Positions 6,958 to 43,652 of a stretch of DNA of 64,000 nucleotides are shown here, piece after piece. Made by a program: the position numbers and the translations under genes. The number at the start of each line of letters is the position of its first letter. The stretch's first letter is position 1. The notes under the pieces are model-generated. The model searched no databases. It was not told where the DNA came from and saw only the letters and a list, made by a program, of their open reading frames with translations. The stretch is taken from the NCBI GenBank assembly GCA_018675335.1, contig JABGYH010000007.1, positions 308,232 through 372,231 of the forward strand, written 5' to 3'. The stretch is from Candidatus Woesearchaeota archaeon. Its GTDB lineage: Archaea > Nanobdellota > Nanobdellia > Woesearchaeales > UBA11576.

Positions 6958-8001
6958 ATGACAAAAGTAACTTGTGTTAGCGTTGTATTACAAAAAGCTG
7001 AAGATGTAAAGAATTTTTTACTTGAAAAAAATCTATTTAATAAAGATTATTCTTTCAAAAAATATGAAAATAGAATTTGCTTCCCAATAATTCAATCAAA
7101 AGAAAGCAACCAAATGATTCTAGACAAGTTCGATTTTGTAACATTTGAAGAACTAGAATTACAAGAAACTAGATATCCTCAAAATTTAAAAGACTCACTA
7201 AAAGAAAAATTAACAAAAGAAGAATTAGGTTTTTTAAAAACTTCATACGATGTTGTTGGAACAATTGCAATACTTGAAATTGATGCACCACTTGATAAAA
7301 AAGAAAAAATTATTGCAGATGAAATTCTTAAAACAAACAAAAACATAAAAACAGTAGTAAAAAAGGCAGATAAACACGACGGAGAATTTAGAACTCAAAA
7401 AATGACCTACATTGCCGGCGAAGAAACACTCGAAACATCATATCAAGAACATAATGTGCGACTAAAACTAAATGTTGAAGAAGTATATTTTTCACCAAGA
7501 CTCTCAACTGAACGAAAAAGAATATATGAAAAGATTACGAAGGGAGAAGATGTTTTAGTTATGTTTAGTGGTTGTGCACCTTATCCTTGCGTTCTTTCAA
7601 AAAATAGTTCTGCTGCCAATATTTTAGGAGTTGAAATAAATCCAGTAGGACACAAATATGGAATTGAAAATATTAAATTAAACAAACTAACCAATGTTAA
7701 ATTAATTAATGGCGATGTACGCGAAATTGTTCCAAAGCTAGAAGAAAAATTTGATCGAATACTTATGCCACTACCAAAAACTGCAGAAGAATTTTTAGAT
7801 ACAGCACTTTGCGTTGCAAAAAAAGGAACAATAGTTCACTTATACGCCTTTTTACATGAAGACAATTTTAAAGAAGCACACGATGCAATAGACATTGCCT
7901 GCAAGAATAAAGGATTTAAGTATAAACTACTTGAGACAGTCAAATGCGGGCAACACGCGCCAAGAGTATATAGAATCTGTGTTGATTTTGAGATACTTTA
8001 A
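6958..8001 (+). CDS. tRNA (guanine37-N1)-methyltransferase Trm5/Taw2 family (class I SAM MTase)
   Basis: Motifs FSPRLSTERKRI, VLVMFSGCAPYPCVL, GVEINPVGHKYGIENIKLNKL and FDRILMPLP are typical of Trm5/Taw2. Confidence 0.6.
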   Translation: MTKVTCVSVVLQKAEDVKNFLLEKNLFNKDYSFKKYENRICFPIIQSKESNQMILDKFDFVTFEELELQETRYPQNLKDSLKEKLTKEELGFLKTSYDVVGTIAILEIDAPLDKKEKIIADEILKTNKNIKTVVKKADKHDGEFRTQKMTYIAGEETLETSYQEHNVRLKLNVEEVYFSPRLSTERKRIYEKITKGEDVLVMFSGCAPYPCVLSKNSSAANILGVEINPVGHKYGIENIKLNKLTNVKLINGDVREIVPKLEEKFDRILMPLPKTAEEFLDTALCVAKKGTIVHLYAFLHEDNFKEAHDAIDIACKNKGFKYKLLETVKCGQHAPRVYRICVDFEIL

Positions 8002-8250: not shown

Positions 8251-9615
8251 TTAATCGACAAAATCTATAAACTGCCCATCTTGAATTATGTGAACTTGTT
8301 TTTCAGTTTCATAACCCATTTCTTGACAAAGATCAACAAGTGCAGTCTTCATACTCAAATTACCATGCGCAGGAATAATATGTTTTGGTTTTACCATATT
8401 AATCAAATCTCTCAAATCTTCTCTTGCTGCATGACCACTAACATGAATTTTTTTAAAGAGTCTCACTCCTTTCTTTTTTATTTTCTCTTCTAAAATCTTA
8501 CGATTTGCAATATTAATAGTTGTTGGAATCACATCACAACTAAAAATAATATGATCTTCTTTTTCTAGTTCAAACTTAAATTCACCAGAAATAATTCTTG
8601 ACAAAACAGATTTAGGCTCGGCTTGATGACCTGTGCACACAATCAAATACTTAGAACGATCTTTTTTGACCTCTTCTAACATACGAGCAATTTTCTTTTT
8701 ATAACAAATAACTGTTGCTTCACGAGAAAAATCAACTATTTTAATTGCTTCTGCAGCACCCACATACTTACCTAAACTACGACCTAAAAGAATAACTTTT
8801 CGCTCCAATTTATTACCAAACTCAATAATTGATTTGAGTCTTGCTATATGACTAGAAAAAGTTGTGACAATAACTGCTTTACCCTCGCTATTACAACAAA
8901 GCATAACATCTTTTAGTAATTCACGCGCTACTTGCTCTGAAGGAGTCTTACCATCATTATTTGCACGCGTACAATCAACAATTAATGCAACCACTTTTGA
9001 TTTGGGATCCTCAGAGTTTTCAGAAATTTCCCCAATTCTTTTTAATTTTTCAAAATTAGGTTTTTTACCAAGAGTAGGATTATTATCAAACTTAAAATCA
9101 TTACCATAAATAACTTTACCATACTTAGTATGAACAATCACCATCACAGTCTGAGGAGTACTATGCGTCATGTTAACAAATTCAATAGTGATATTATCAG
9201 AAATTTTATAAGAACAATTAACATTTAAAACTTTAATTTCATTATTAAGTTTTATTTTTTCATCTTTACAAATTCTAAAAATAACTTCTGCAGTAAATGG
9301 CGTGCAAATGATTGGAGACGTAAATTTATTTGACATAAAAGGAATTGCTCCAACATGATCCAGATGTGCGTGAGTTGGAATAATTGCTTTTACTAATTTT
9401 TTCCATTTTTTAATTGGTTCAATATCAGGAATTGCGCCAATTTTAGATAATGCATATGCACTCAAATCAACATTGTCTGCATCTTCAGTATAATTCACAT
9501 AAGCATCCAGATGAAGCCCCATATCAAGAATTACTACCTCATCATCAACTCGCACTGCAGTCATGTTTTTACCAACTTCATTAAATCCTCCCACACCACA
9601 AATTTGTAAAGTCAT
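8251..9615 (-). CDS. beta-CASP family metallo-beta-lactamase RNase (aCPSF2-like, no KH domains)
   Basis: HxHxDH motif (IIPTHAHLDHVGAIPF), ~450 aa, beta-CASP C-terminal region (…IHVSGHAAREDL). Confidence 0.7.
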   Translation of the reverse strand: MTLQICGVGGFNEVGKNMTAVRVDDEVVILDMGLHLDAYVNYTEDADNVDLSAYALSKIGAIPDIEPIKKWKKLVKAIIPTHAHLDHVGAIPFMSNKFTSPIICTPFTAEVIFRICKDEKIKLNNEIKVLNVNCSYKISDNITIEFVNMTHSTPQTVMVIVHTKYGKVIYGNDFKFDNNPTLGKKPNFEKLKRIGEISENSEDPKSKVVALIVDCTRANNDGKTPSEQVARELLKDVMLCCNSEGKAVIVTTFSSHIARLKSIIEFGNKLERKVILLGRSLGKYVGAAEAIKIVDFSREATVICYKKKIARMLEEVKKDRSKYLIVCTGHQAEPKSVLSRIISGEFKFELEKEDHIIFSCDVIPTTINIANRKILEEKIKKKGVRLFKKIHVSGHAAREDLRDLINMVKPKHIIPAHGNLSMKTALVDLCQEMGYETEKQVHIIQDGQFIDFVD

Positions 9616-9802
9616 GAAAAAAGATTCAGGATAATTTGTTTATAAATCTTTGGAAGAAAAAGAAACTGAATTTGATTGAAAGCAGATGACTGCAATAAGT
9701 TTTATATATCACTGCAAGATTTCTTTTACGCAGCGCGAAAGGCTTAAATTGGTTAATTGAACGCTAAACTAATGTTACCTTAAAATTAATGCTTAAAAAA
9801 AC

Positions 9803-10007
9803 GTGGGGGTAGCAAAGTATGGTCAAATGCGCTGGACTCAAGTTAAATTTGAGTGATGAGCTTATGCGATGAATAATTACGCATATGACTTTCCTATTAT
9901 GAGGAATCCAGTCCTTTAGTAGGTTCAGGGGTTCGAAATTAAATATGATTTTTTTAGTGCTTAAAACTAACTAAAAACCATATTTGACGATTGTCCCCTC
10001 CCCCACA
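9803..10007 (+). tRNA. tRNA-Leu(CAA) interrupted by two introns (canonical 37/38 intron ~63 nt plus a ~57-nt insertion in the T-loop)
   Basis: Acceptor GTGGGGG/CCCCCAC with discriminator A; D-arm GCA-AAGTATGGTCAAA-TGC; anticodon stem CTGGA/TCCAG with loop CTCAAG|intron|A; 15-nt variable arm TCCTTTAGTAGGTTC; T-stem AGGGG/CCCCT with TTCGAAA followed by a 57-nt insert before CCCCT. The BHB-like 3' half (TGAG helix plus 3-nt bulge GAA) is visible at the anticodon intron. Confidence 0.7.
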
Positions 10008-10049
10008 TTTTCTATTTTTTTATCATAAATAATAATTAGAACAATAAAA

Positions 10050-11084
10050 TTAAAAGAAATCTCCAAGACCTTTTTGCGCTGCTTTTTGTTGTTGCTTTTC
10101 AAGTTTTTTTAATGCAGACAAAACACGATCTTTGCTAAAATCATGTTCTTCACATAAAATTTTACAAACCCTATCAGGATCAATTGCAGTCCAGGTTAAA
10201 TCATAATCATCAGTGTGAGGCATTTTTTTAAATAAATAAAATACTTCAGTCCAAGGAAAATCAAAAAAATCATCCCACTTAACTTCTTCAAATAAACTAT
10301 CAAAATCAGAACCATGTTTTTTAACTAACTTAATTGCATTTTTTGGACCAATACCCCTAATTCCTCCAACATTGAAATCAGTTCCAACTAACATGCCGAC
10401 AGCAATTAATTGATCTCTATCAATACCTAAATGATTAAGGTTTTCTGCAAGTTCTATTATTTCAGGTTTAATTTGTTCATAAGACAATCTGCCCAACATT
10501 TTTTTACGCTCAGAAATAGTTAAATTACGAACCATAATAGGCACTCCAAACATCAAACAATCAAAGTCTTGAGAAATTTCATAATCAACTTCCCCTTTTG
10601 AAACCATGTATGCTGCTTGGGCCTCCCCCTCGCTTGGTGCTTGAATAACTGGAATTCCCAGCGCCAATAAAAGTTCTTTTGCTTCACTTACCATTTCAGG
10701 ACTTAACTTAGCAGTTCTTGCAGCAAATTTTTTCATACCTTCGAGATCGTGCTCAGCTTCCGCTTCTTTAAATTTTTTTTGAGCGTCTGATTTGAGTTGT
10801 GCTCGCCTAATACGTTCTTTAGTTTTAAGTTCTGGTGCTTTCCCATCAAAAACAAAAGCAAGTTTCATTCCATGAGACATAAGTTTAGTTGACCTATAAA
10901 ATAATCCACTAAGATGAGATGTTACTCTACCTTTAGAATCAGTAAGAAGTGCTCCGTCTCTTTGACGAATTGTCGATACAAATTGATATAAAATATTAAA
11001 TGCATCTACTGCAAACGTTTTATTATTAAATTGATTAATCGACGCTTCTTTTTTCAAAATTAAATCTTTAAGATTAACACCCAT
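10050..11084 (-). CDS. fen: Flap endonuclease 1 (FEN-1)
   Basis: N-terminus MGVNLKDLI…AVDAFNILYQF, XPG-N/I domains, and a C-terminal PIP-like tail (…QKGLGDFF). Confidence 0.85.
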   Translation of the reverse strand: MGVNLKDLILKKEASINQFNNKTFAVDAFNILYQFVSTIRQRDGALLTDSKGRVTSHLSGLFYRSTKLMSHGMKLAFVFDGKAPELKTKERIRRAQLKSDAQKKFKEAEAEHDLEGMKKFAARTAKLSPEMVSEAKELLLALGIPVIQAPSEGEAQAAYMVSKGEVDYEISQDFDCLMFGVPIMVRNLTISERKKMLGRLSYEQIKPEIIELAENLNHLGIDRDQLIAVGMLVGTDFNVGGIRGIGPKNAIKLVKKHGSDFDSLFEEVKWDDFFDFPWTEVFYLFKKMPHTDDYDLTWTAIDPDRVCKILCEEHDFSKDRVLSALKKLEKQQQKAAQKGLGDFF

Positions 11085-11194: not shown

Positions 11195-12472
11195 TCAGAT
11201 ATTGTTGATGACCATTCCTTTAAATTCATTAGACAACATTTCTTCTGCTCGCTTAGTTAACTTTCCCGACGTAACAAAAAGAACAGGTAACTTTTTTAAT
11301 TGTCCTTGAACAAACGCTGAACTTAAATCACCATCATTAATTGTTTTTTTTGATTTAGCTTTACAATAAAAACTAATAACTCCTACTGGACTTGGAACAT
11401 CAAGTACCAAATCAAGTTCAGAATTTTTTCGAATAATTTTTATGTCAATAAGTTTAATATCATTTGATTTTAAAAATGAACTTATTTGAGACCCGAACTC
11501 ATCATCAGGAATTTGAGGAAGTGGTTTTTCAAAAGTTTTTTGCGTTTCATTAGAAATTGATTCAAGTTTTGATTTTTTAGGTTTTGGTTTATCCCTCGAT
11601 ATTTCTTTAATTTGAGAAATTTCTTTTCTTAAGTCTGAGATGATAGATTTTTGTTGATTGATAAGATCATTTCTATGTTTTAAAAGAGATTGTTCTAATT
11701 CTAAAATTGTTTGATGATCATTAAGTTGAGCTTTAGATGGTACTTCACTATCACTCGTTGTTGAAGGAACCTGACTTTTTTGAGTTAATACTTCAGGCTC
11801 CACATTTGGTTGCGCATTAGGTCGGGGTGATTCAACTGGCGTTGGTTGTGCAGGATGAGTTTGAGTAATTGGTTTTTGAGTTGGTTGTATGTGCTCCGCT
11901 GCAATTGAATTAGAATTTTCTTTTTGAACCTGAGTGTTTTGCGATTGAACTTGATTATTTTCAGGAACATCTGCTTTTGGAACTTCATCTACTTTTTCAA
12001 CTTCAGGTGCAGACTTATCTTCAATTCCCAATAATTTTTTAATAAAAACCGAACTCTCATCATTTGATAACAAATACCATTTCCAAAAAATTTCAGTAGA
12101 ATTATTATGCGAAACTTCTAACGGAATTGCAAAGTCTTTAATTTCTCTTAAACTAACTCGCACCAAAGGAGTCTGAGTTGAATCTTGAAGAATCTTTTTA
12201 GATTTTAATAAATCAAAAGTATCACGATCTTTTGCATTAAGTTTATTTGAAAAATTTTGAAGAAGATGTTCTTGACCTGGCTTAAAATACAAAGGAGACC
12301 CCCCAAATTTCAAATTTGAAAGCTTTAAAATTTTATTATCAACAAGCTCGGATAACATAGCTGATGTAAACAGAATATTTAGATTTAATTCCTTATTAAT
12401 ATTTGATGGAATAACTGGGCCTTTAATACTTATTAACTGAAGGATCTTAGACTGGTTATCTGGAGCTGCCAT
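11195..12472 (-). CDS. Hypothetical protein: N-terminal winged-helix-like domain, P/Q-rich linker, C-terminal restriction-endonuclease-like (PD-(D/E)xK-like) domain
   Basis: C-terminal segment ELDLVLDVPSPVGVISFYCKAKSKK resembles the D…(D/E)xK core of Hjc-like nucleases. The middle ~120 aa is Q/P/S-rich. Confidence 0.4.
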   Translation of the reverse strand: MAAPDNQSKILQLISIKGPVIPSNINKELNLNILFTSAMLSELVDNKILKLSNLKFGGSPLYFKPGQEHLLQNFSNKLNAKDRDTFDLLKSKKILQDSTQTPLVRVSLREIKDFAIPLEVSHNNSTEIFWKWYLLSNDESSVFIKKLLGIEDKSAPEVEKVDEVPKADVPENNQVQSQNTQVQKENSNSIAAEHIQPTQKPITQTHPAQPTPVESPRPNAQPNVEPEVLTQKSQVPSTTSDSEVPSKAQLNDHQTILELEQSLLKHRNDLINQQKSIISDLRKEISQIKEISRDKPKPKKSKLESISNETQKTFEKPLPQIPDDEFGSQISSFLKSNDIKLIDIKIIRKNSELDLVLDVPSPVGVISFYCKAKSKKTINDGDLSSAFVQGQLKKLPVLFVTSGKLTKRAEEMLSNEFKGMVINNI

Positions 12473-12587: not shown

Positions 12588-13118
12588 TTATGGTCGCATC
12601 CAACGAATTTCCCAGTAAGTAACATCAGTCTCAGCATCAACAACACCGATTAAAAGCCGTTTTTTAGTTGAGTTTGCAACACGATTTTTTGCAGAAAATT
12701 CATACCATGAAAAACTATCTGATTCTTTAACAGGATATACTAACCATTTGGCATGATCTTCACCAGGTTTCACACCACGATCGTAAACCCTAAAATCAGC
12801 ACCAAACTTAAGTGCAGTCTTAACAATATACCCTCTGTTTCTTAAATCCTTAAACACGCAGAATCTAGTCCAGAAATTATTTTCTTTTCTTAACGCTTTT
12901 TTAAGAAAATTCTGATCATCAAGTGGCTTATTACGAAGATCAGTAATGACAATACGTTTTTTTTGCATAAGATAATAAGCTTCAATAAGAGATAATTCTA
13001 CTCTGCTTTCAACAACAACCCCAAATCTACTTTGATTATAAAGTTCTCTTGCTATATCACTATCTTCAGTTAATACTCTTTCCTTAGCAAAAATTGCTTT
13101 AACAACTTGTTTTGGCAT
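12588..13118 (-). CDS. endA: tRNA-splicing endonuclease (EndA), short alpha4-type length (176 aa)
   Basis: Catalytic region FGADFRVYDRG…HAKWLVYPV…STKK matches the EndA Tyr/His/Lys core. Confidence 0.75.
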   Translation of the reverse strand: MPKQVVKAIFAKERVLTEDSDIARELYNQSRFGVVVESRVELSLIEAYYLMQKKRIVITDLRNKPLDDQNFLKKALRKENNFWTRFCVFKDLRNRGYIVKTALKFGADFRVYDRGVKPGEDHAKWLVYPVKESDSFSWYEFSAKNRVANSTKKRLLIGVVDAETDVTYWEIRWMRP

Positions 13119-17116: not shown

Positions 17117-17229
17117 AGCCCTTGGTGAGAGTTGAACTCACGACCTGCTGCTAACTCAAATAAACACATTTTACAAGTTCTGTGTTAGGATATACGAGGC
17201 AGCCGCTCCAGCCACTAAGCTACAAGGGC
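17117..17229 (-). tRNA. tRNA-Thr(CGU) with a ~40-nt canonical-position intron
   Basis: Reverse complement gives acceptor GCCCTTG/CAAGGGC; D-arm GCTT-AGTGGCTG-GAGC; anticodon stem GCTGC/GCAGC with loop CTCGTA|intron|A; variable loop AGGTC; T-arm GTGAG-TTCAACT-CTCAC. BHB 3' half: TGAG helix plus TTA bulge. Confidence 0.7.
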
Positions 17230-43173: not shown

Positions 43174-43382
43174 GGGCCCGTAGCCTAGCCTGGTAAAAAT
43201 CATCACTCACTCTGAGAATAATATTTGAAGAGTTTACTGATTTTTAGGTAAATAGGGCAACAGCCTTCTAACCAAACAAACTAAAGTTTGAGAAGAGAGC
43301 TGTGGGTCGAGGGTTCGAAATGTTTTAAGCGCTAGGTAAAACCGACCGAAATGCTTAAACCTCGAAAGTCCCTCCGGGCTCG
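43174..43382 (+). tRNA. tRNA-Arg(UCU) apparently interrupted by three introns (D-loop ~58 nt, anticodon 37/38 ~27 nt, T-loop ~49 nt)
   Basis: Removing three inserts yields a 74-nt cloverleaf: GGGCCCG-TA-GCCT-AGCCTGGTA-GGGC-A-ACAGC-CTTCTAA-GCTGT-GGGTC-GAGGG-TTCGAAA-CCCTC-CGGGCTC-G. BHB 3' half at the anticodon intron: GAAG helix plus AGA bulge. T-loop insert is flanked by duplicated TCGAAA. Confidence 0.55.
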
Positions 43383-43527: not shown

Positions 43528-43652
43528 GGTGGAGTCGCCAAGCCCGGTAAGGCGTTCGGCTGCAATAATTGGGATGATGAGCAACCAAAAATCATGGTTG
43601 TAATGATCTAGCAGATCCCGATCATTCGAGGGTTCAAATCCCTCCTCCACCT
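43528..43652 (+). tRNA. tRNA-Cys(GCA) with ~51-nt canonical-position intron
   Basis: Acceptor GGTGGAG/CTCCACC with discriminator U; D-arm GCC-AAGCCCGGTAA-GGC; anticodon arm TTCGG-CTGCAA|intron|C-CCGAT; T-arm GAGGG-TTCAAAT-CCCTC. BHB 3' half: GCAG helix plus ATC bulge. Confidence 0.6.

Follow-up and report, generated by a model that had tools for sequence, protein, structure and literature searches.

A tRNA-Leu(CAA) gene from a Woesearchaeota archaeon with two predicted bulge-helix-bulge introns, one of them in the T-loop

Position 59/60, within the T-loop, is a listed site of non-canonical introns in archaeal tRNA genes (PMC4090602). In ARMAN-2 (Candidatus Micrarchaeum), a member of the DPANN archaea, the pre-tRNA-Cys(GCA) has a 59/60 intron that is cleaved in vitro (Fujishima et al. 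2011, PMC3239211), and the pre-tRNA-Pro(GGG) has introns at both 53/54 and 59/60 (PMC3239211). The motif cleaved by the archaeal splicing endonuclease EndA, the bulge-helix-bulge (BHB), comprises two 3-nt bulges with a 4-bp helix between them (PMC3239211, PMC5829648). Kaneta et al. (2018, PMC5829648) predicted the tRNA genes of DPANN genomes, including one from Woesearchaeota; they associated DPANN alpha4-type EndAs with increased tRNA gene disruption and pointed to hidden disrupted tRNA genes still to be found in these archaea (PMC5829648). Here, we describe a tRNA-Leu(CAA) gene that is interrupted in both the anticodon loop and the T-loop. It lies in a 64,000-nt stretch of DNA, hereafter the window (positions 308,232 to 372,231 of contig JABGYH010000007.1, assembly GCA_018675335.1), whose host is a Woesearchaeota archaeon of the DPANN. 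We put the probability at roughly 0.9 that the locus is a functional gene made up of three exons and two protein-spliced archaeal BHB introns.

The locus shares with ARMAN-2 a DPANN host, a T-loop intron exactly at 59/60, excision of a BHB by EndA (here predicted) and the occurrence of multi-intron tRNA genes. The ARMAN-2 Cys intron is only 13 nt long and has a relaxed hBH motif, whereas the Leu intron of the window is 56 nt long with a near-strict 3-4-3 BHB. The enzymes differ as well: ARMAN-2 EndA is a three-unit epsilon2 protein with extra loops, whereas the EndA encoded in the window has 176 aa, is alpha4-like and lacks an insertion at the site where N. equitans and ARMAN-2 have one. Multi-intron tRNAs are also found in Thermoproteales and other Crenarchaeota (Sugahara et al. 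2007, 2008) and, going by their treatment in the review PMC4090602, they resemble the window genes in having up to three BHB introns per tRNA, in recurrent sites that include 59/60 and the D-loop, and in being hidden from standard gene finders. The crenarchaeal hosts covered there are hyperthermophilic and mostly GC-rich TACK archaea with an (alpha-beta)2 EndA bearing a Crenarchaea-specific loop, whereas the window comes from a Woesearchaeote of 31% GC; compared with Thermoproteales as that review presents them, the window tRNAs give no clear sign of intron transposition from one to another. An earlier annotation of the window, made from its letters and here called the sequence-only reading, had implied that the arrangement is novel. 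That does not hold, as the 59/60 site, multi-intron tRNAs and tRNA disruption in DPANN were all published before (PMC4090602, PMC3239211, PMC5829648).

Gene structure and in-silico splicing

Reading of the sequence together with in-silico splicing gave the following gene model, in which all parts lie on the forward (+) strand:

9803-10007, +: tRNA-Leu(CAA) gene, three exons and two introns
9803-9842, +: exon 1, with the 5' strand of the acceptor stem, the D-arm, the 5' strand of the anticodon stem and the loop up to G37
9843-9905, +: intron 1, 63 nt, at the canonical 37/38 site
9906-9937, +: exon 2, with A38, the 3' strand of the anticodon stem, the variable arm, the 5' strand of the T-stem and TTCGAA (positions 54-59)
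9938-9993, +: intron 2, 56 nt, non-canonical, in the T-loop at 59/60
9994-10007, +: exon 3, with U60, the 3' strand of the T-stem, the 3' strand of the acceptor stem and the discriminator A73

The acceptor stem is a perfect 7-bp helix (GTGGGGG, 9803-9809, with CCCCCAC, 10000-10006) followed by A73 at 10007, and the D-arm (GCAAAGTATGGTCAAATGC) is of the Leu type with a long D-loop. The anticodon stem, CTGGA/TCCAG, encloses a loop that is interrupted after CTCAAG, i.e. after G37, and the variable region of 15 nt (TCCTTTAGTAGGTTC) forms a CCU/AGG stem, as in class II tRNAs. The T-stem halves AGGGG (9927-9931) and CCCCT (9995-9999) are separated by 63 nt. The gene encodes no CCA, and a T-run at 10008-10026 follows directly 3' in a window of 30.6% GC. 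The spliced locus is a class II tRNA-Leu, as seen in its long variable arm, A73 and Leu anticodon, and the architecture that the sequence-only reading had proposed (long D-loop, 15-nt variable arm, A73) is present as described. That reading also had the T-stem split by TTCGAAA plus a 57-nt insert. The split is there, while the insert measures 56 nt rather than 57; the seventh base of the T-loop is the T at 9994 and not a third A, with the cut placed after TTCGAA (A59).

In its default mode, ARAGORN found no tRNA gene in the whole 64-kb window; with anticodon-loop introns allowed, it reported only a Thr and a Cys gene and missed the Leu locus. Rfam likewise returned only the Thr and Cys genes at the gathering threshold, and nothing at the Leu locus even at E<=10. 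Because both tools were silent on the unspliced locus, the inserts were removed by hand and ARAGORN was run again. With both inserts removed (9843-9905 and 9938-9993), it called an 86-nt canonical class II tRNA-Leu(caa). Removal of the T-loop insert alone allowed the gene to be recovered with a 63-nt anticodon-loop intron, and after removal of the anticodon-loop insert alone, ARAGORN called nothing. Self-splicing group I or group II introns, whose catalytic RNA core spans hundreds of nucleotides, were considered and rejected, the inserts being only 56 and 63 nt long and without an Rfam match at E<=10.

Splice motifs of the two introns

The ends of the T-loop intron fold as a 3-4-3 BHB. The outer helix h has 5 bp and is the T-stem itself, AGGGG (9927-9931) with CCCCU (9995-9999); the central helix H joins UUCG (9932-9935) to CGAU (9988-9991) by three Watson-Crick pairs and one U.U; the bulges are AAA (9936-9938) and UGU (9992-9994), with the predicted cuts after AA and after UG; and the inner helix h' has 9 bp (UUAAAUAUG/CAUAUUUGA, 9939-9947 with 9979-9987). 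Placing each cut after the second base of its bulge is our reading of the canonical 37/38 geometry. In ViennaRNA, the BHB fold has an energy of -18.9 kcal/mol, which is 0.6 above the unconstrained minimum free energy (MFE) of -19.5. These features point to a BHB intron at 59/60 for which splicing is predicted.

At intron 1, the central helix H forms all 4 of its 4 pairs, between CUCA (9837-9840) and UGAG (9900-9903), the bulges are AGU (9841-9843, cut after AG) and GAA (9904-9906, cut after GA), the inner helix is UAA/UUA, and the anticodon stem serves as the outer helix. The 3' half of this motif, TGAG at 9900-9903 followed by the GAA bulge at 9904-9906, is just what had been claimed for it earlier.

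A BHB search had been named among the means of checking the sequence-only reading. In a purpose-written, register-aware BHB scan run over the locus, 9938-9993 ranked first (H with 3/4 pairs, h of 5 bp, h' of 9 bp) and 9843-9905 was also recovered (H 4/4, h 6, h' 3). Each intron was then compared with 3000 dinucleotide-preserving shuffles of itself: an equally good BHB appeared for the T-loop insert in 17-19 of the 3000, and the BHB of intron 1, in register, was matched by 1 of 3000. Chance origin of the BHB motifs of the locus is unlikely. An RNAalifold consensus of three T-arms interrupted at 59/60 (the window Leu gene, its ortholog L015 and the window Arg gene, the latter two described below) has the T-stem stacked on a 4-bp UUCG/CGAW helix, a 3-nt 3' bulge, and two T-stem pairs that covary between Leu and Arg.

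The mature loops that follow from the BHB registers are the anticodon loop CUCAAGA (CAA, with G37 and A38) and the T-loop UUCGAAU. When ARAGORN placed the intron of the partly spliced window gene itself, with the exons ending in CTCA and resuming with GAA, the anticodon became CAG, still Leu; it also reported cag for two orthologs, L014 (1860-1992) and L016 (4824-4956), with the canonical intron placed one step early. The BHB register, and with it CAA, is preferred over CAG because ARAGORN places introns heuristically and not from the BHB. The introns could still be real with a different register or identity, that is, with anticodon CAG or with the T-loop cut shifted by one base to leave UUCGAAA. 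The three cag calls speak for such a reading, and the sequence at both junctions does permit alternative cuts that leave 7-nt loops. It is nonetheless very unlikely: ARAGORN's placement is a heuristic, and cuts after the second bulge base join CUCA-AG to A and so give CAA with G37, a base that, as m1G37, is usual in archaeal tRNA-Leu. At the other junction, the same rule joins UUCG-AA to U and gives U60, as found in the intron-free T-loops of orthologs (TTCAAAT). Isoacceptors in genomes of this kind are likely to be mis-annotated through such misplacement of introns by ARAGORN.

An 8-bp hairpin that competes with the BHB of intron 1 can form at 9836-9854, between the anticodon loop ACUCAAGU and the intron-proximal AUUUGAGU; this complementarity is kept in the orthologs.

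Orthologs and the other tRNA genes of the window

A scan of JGI metagenomes with a 22-nt word from exon 1 found three orthologs (L014, L015 and L016). Both introns are present in L015, the exons of which are identical to those of the window gene at 84 of 86 positions; its exon 1 differs at a single D-loop base. The T-loop intron of L015 lies at the same 59/60 site and has diverged, being 33 nt long compared with 56 nt in the window, and the two share only the BHB-forming 3' end, TATTTGACGA. Its H helix is a perfect UUCG/CGAA, and an A.A mismatch stands at the start of h'. Intron 1 of L015 is clearly homologous to that of the window. In L014 and L016, the exons are 72/86 identical, and these genes have only the canonical intron and an intact T-loop, TTCAAAT; intron 1 is thus conserved in all three orthologs. 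Judged from these three sequences, the gene behaves as expected for a BHB intron: the exons and the ends that form the splice motif are conserved, the interior varies freely, and the intron is either there or cleanly missing.

The comparison bears on whether the locus might be a pseudogene, its T-loop broken by a random 56-nt insertion whose BHB-like fold is a coincidence of AT-rich sequence. Such a reading would agree with the failure of standard detectors to see a tRNA at the locus, with the approximately 0.6% of shuffled inserts that reach an equal BHB score and with the U.U mismatch in H. We consider it highly improbable. The L015 exons are 84/86 identical while its insert differs in length and sequence everywhere except at the BHB-forming end, a sign that selection has acted on both the exons and the splice motif. 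Furthermore, a tRNA-Arg gene uses the same site and has a better H helix there, splicing in the BHB register would leave precisely the consensus loop UUCGAAU, and EndA is present.

The orthologs also bear on an origin of the T-loop insert as the scar or att remnant of an integrated mobile element, or as an assembly chimera. The 3' halves of tRNA genes are common integration targets, and the source of the window is a metagenome assembly, both of which would suit this origin. A search for integration scars found no duplicated tRNA 3' half and no att-like or direct repeats flanking the T-loop insert, which is itself only 56 nt long. Moreover, the T-loop is interrupted at this very position in L015, an independent JGI contig, and FEN1, a gene next to the locus, occurs on 7 contigs with similar gene neighbourhoods in a gene-level comparison. 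Integration or chimerism is therefore exceedingly improbable.

A scan for T-arm and acceptor pairings that permit a T-loop insert gave four GC-rich candidates in the window. The three tRNA genes besides tRNA-Leu are as follows:

17117-17229, - strand: tRNA-Thr(CGU)
43174-43382, + strand: tRNA-Arg(UCU) with three introns, missed by ARAGORN and Rfam
43194-43251, + strand: D-loop intron of tRNA-Arg, strict BHB (H 4, h 4, h' 8)
43271-43297, + strand: canonical intron of tRNA-Arg
43320-43368, + strand: T-loop intron of tRNA-Arg at 59/60, read by hand, with UUCG/CGAA and bulges AAA (cut after AA) and AGU (cut after AG)
43528-43652, + strand: tRNA-Cys(GCA)

All 4 of the 4 window tRNA genes contain introns, seven in total, two of them at 59/60. 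Spliced in silico, the Arg gene yields a 75-nt product that ARAGORN calls tRNA-Arg(tct). The tRNA-Cys gene has a U27.U43 mismatch in its anticodon stem, and its canonical intron of 51 nt, analysed by hand, has H = CUGC/GCAG with no clean inner helix, corresponding to a relaxed hBH. The sequence-only reading had counted the Leu gene as the second tRNA of the window with a T-loop insertion; the other case identified here is this tRNA-Arg(UCU), one of whose three introns is at 59/60. The further claim that such insertions are a habit of the lineage rather than an artefact is borne out by the Arg 59/60 intron, by the diverged L015 intron at the same site and by the RNAalifold consensus.

Transposition of an intron between tRNAs, as modelled for Thermoproteales, is not supported: the two 59/60 introns, of Leu and Arg, have no more than an 11-nt stretch in common, which 85 of 2000 shuffles equal in score. 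Separately, TGCTTAAA occurs in 4 copies in the window, against 8.3 expected, and three of these are at tRNA genes:

9790-9797: upstream of tRNA-Leu
9958-9965: in the Leu 59/60 intron
43352-43359: in the Arg 59/60 intron

The sharing of TGCTTAAA may point to introns of common origin or to a shared signal; the introns are otherwise barely similar.

Intron 1 also carries a box-C-like element, GUGAUGA (9853-9859), which agrees perfectly with the box C consensus (RUGAUGA) and is kept in the four Leu orthologs as well as in the tRNA-Cys intron. A block of the form UUGAG-UGAUGAGC-hairpin-(A/U)UGAC, at 9848-9887 in the window, is conserved in all four Leu orthologs (4/4), and the rest of intron 1 varies. 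The string TGATGAGC has only two occurrences in the 64 kb, both on the sense strand and within canonical tRNA introns:

9854-9861, sense: TGATGAGC in tRNA-Leu intron 1
43575-43582, sense: TGATGAGC in tRNA-Cys (intron region 43570-43606)

For comparison, the euryarchaeal pre-tRNA-Trp intron encodes a box C/D guide (Clouet d'Orval et al. 2001, as cited in PMC7994747), and C/D-guided methylation has been predicted for C34 of the Pyrococcus tRNA-Leu(CAA) (PMC7994747). Like the tRNA-Trp intron, as far as it is characterised in that citation, intron 1 has a perfect box C and a short antisense to the anticodon loop. It differs from the Trp guide, on the same basis, in having no CUGA, in the position of its antisense 5' of box C and in a duplex of only 7 bp; the likeness does not extend to the T-loop intron. 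Neither a CUGA box D nor D' is present in intron 1, only AUGA and UUGA, and there is no clear C' box. A standard guide is 10-12 nt long and immediately precedes box D or D', with its target at N+5; the 7-bp antisense match to the anticodon loop, being 5' of box C, is not on that side. By hand analysis, C34 in Leu and C39 in Cys would come to lie at N+5 if the AUGA within box C served as a D' box. Intron 1 does not fit the model of a standard C/D guide RNA, given the missing CUGA, the lack of a clear C' and box spacers that differ between L014 and L016. The downstream UGA could provide the sheared G.A pairs of a kink-turn (K-turn) or K-loop. It is possible, though rather unlikely, that the Leu and Cys canonical introns carry a functional box C/D-like K-turn, built of GUGAUGA, a short hairpin and then AUGA or UUGA, and acting as a 2'-O-methylation guide or as an L7Ae-binding site that controls pre-tRNA folding. 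The two occurrences of TGATGAGC and the conservation of the motif in the four Leu orthologs speak for it. If true, a DPANN lineage would have a counterpart of the euryarchaeal tRNA-Trp intron, carried by other tRNAs and with a box geometry that departs from the standard. A crude motif search of the open reading frames (ORFs) of the 64-kb window found no L7Ae, fibrillarin, Nop5 or archease. An IMG/VR scan for the intron-1 motif gave one match, in a coding region of a 55% GC contig, which was discarded as chance.

EndA, gene neighbourhood and meaning of the locus

The window encodes an EndA 2.6 kb from the tRNA-Leu gene, in the following surroundings:

6958-8001, + strand: Trm5/Taw2-family methyltransferase (Pfam TRM5-TYW2_MTfase, TYW2_N_2, Trm5_N)
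8251-9615: RNase J, which together with tRNA-Leu lies between FEN1 and Trm5 in the window
10050-11084, - strand: FEN1
11195-12472, - strand: hypothetical ORF, 425 aa, no Pfam match
12588-13118, - strand: EndA, tRNA-splicing endonuclease, 176 aa (Pfam tRNA_int_endo_N and tRNA_int_endo)

The closest solved structures to this EndA are the Nanoarchaeum equitans alpha subunit 3IEY_A (5e-36) and the Methanocaldococcus jannaschii alpha4 enzyme 1A79 (2e-30). It aligns almost without gaps to 1A79, the subunit of the M. jannaschii homotetramer, and residues are conserved at the positions that align with the catalytic Tyr, His and Lys of M. jannaschii (against 1A79 and 3IEY_A). An acidic D-x-E-x-D loop resembles the L10 loop of M. 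jannaschii, and N. equitans alpha has no such loop. The alignments suggest a homotetramer (alpha4-like). The stretch from Tyr to His, YDRGVKPGEDH, is invariant in the window EndA and eight Woesearchaeota orthologs (L002, L003, L005, L006, L007, L012, L017 and L020); it has the M. jannaschii length, is 6 residues shorter than in N. equitans and 5 shorter than in ARMAN-2, whose extra residues include a Lys, and a Lys is present in the loop. Broad-specificity loops are known as L1/CSL, L2/ASL and, in N. equitans and ARMAN-2, L3; the insertion of the N. equitans/ARMAN-2 type, with a conserved Lys near the catalytic His, is absent from the window EndA and the eight aligned orthologs. From the wording of PMC3239211 and PMC5829648, this site probably equates with the published L3, the Nanoarchaea/ARMAN-2 loop. 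Kaneta et al., in the portion of their account that concerns this loop, tie the association with tRNA disruption to L3, and the nine Woesearchaeota EndAs aligned here have no extra residues there.

Several observations weigh against two BHB introns spliced at this locus. For the T-loop motif, ViennaRNA slightly favours an alternative 3-bp pairing, CGA/UUG, the H helix carries one U.U mismatch, and the intron is present in one independent ortholog only, which leaves the covariation evidence thin. At intron 1, the inner helix has only 3 A-U pairs, and a competing hairpin, CUCAAG/UUUGAG, brings the MFE to -21.1 kcal/mol, so that the BHB-constrained fold at -13.7 is 7.4 worse. Lastly, the EndA does not have the loop insertion that PMC5829648 and PMC3239211, in what they say of L3, link to the cleavage of relaxed motifs at non-canonical positions. 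An alpha4 enzyme should be enough to cut the near-strict T-loop BHB of tRNA-Leu; the motifs of Arg at 59/60 and of Cys at 37/38 have no clean inner helix.

The sequence data show the structure of the tRNA-Leu(CAA) gene, its BHB folds, their conservation in orthologs and the presence of EndA; we infer from them that the gene is transcribed, that its RNA is cut and ligated, and in what order the introns leave. In the proposed scheme, which is well founded, the primary transcript would fold such that each pair of exon-intron junctions forms a BHB; EndA would recognise the BHB wherever it is placed in the tRNA and cut after the second base of each bulge; and an RNA ligase of the RtcB type would then join the exons. 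Excision of the 63-nt intron would restore the anticodon loop CUCAAGA (CAA, G37), excision of the 56-nt intron would restore the T-loop UUCGAAU, and CCA would be added post-transcriptionally. No RtcB-like sequence was found among the window ORFs in a crude motif search confined to the 64 kb. The Trm5/Taw2-family protein plausibly makes m1G37, the base beside the canonical splice site.

The order metallo-beta-lactamase (beyond 13118), EndA, 425-aa hypothetical, FEN1, Trm5/Taw2 is a cluster conserved across Woesearchaeota (L002-L009, L017-L021), and its metallo-beta-lactamase gene is possibly RNase Z-like. Woesearchaeota conserve two segments of the 425-aa protein, ~165 residues at its N-terminus and ~100 at its C-terminus, and its gene stands between EndA and FEN1 in every case; the middle is low-complexity and Q/P/S-rich. 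The window FEN1 is identical to a protein listed by NCBI under Candidatus Woesearchaeota, and the relatives of FEN1 in GTDB genomes come almost entirely from Woesearchaeota metagenome-assembled genomes. The tRNA-Leu gene is not part of the conserved EndA-hypothetical-FEN1-Trm5 cluster in relatives, and a search by synteny found no tRNA-Leu beside FEN1 in 12 loci of GTDB genomes, nor in closer relatives.

How archaeal tRNA introns are understood to work is unchanged by this locus; the catalogue gains from Woesearchaeota a 59/60 intron whose BHB is clean and near-strict. The occurrence of that intron alongside an alpha4-like EndA that lacks the N. equitans/ARMAN-2 insertion is a modest point against such loops being required at non-canonical positions. 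Two of the four tRNA genes of the window are invisible to ARAGORN and Rfam, so that in an automated annotation tRNA-Leu(CAA) and tRNA-Arg(UCU) would seem to be missing, and the decoding set of the organism could wrongly be taken for incomplete, which is the annotation gap that Kaneta et al. flagged for DPANN genomes (PMC5829648).

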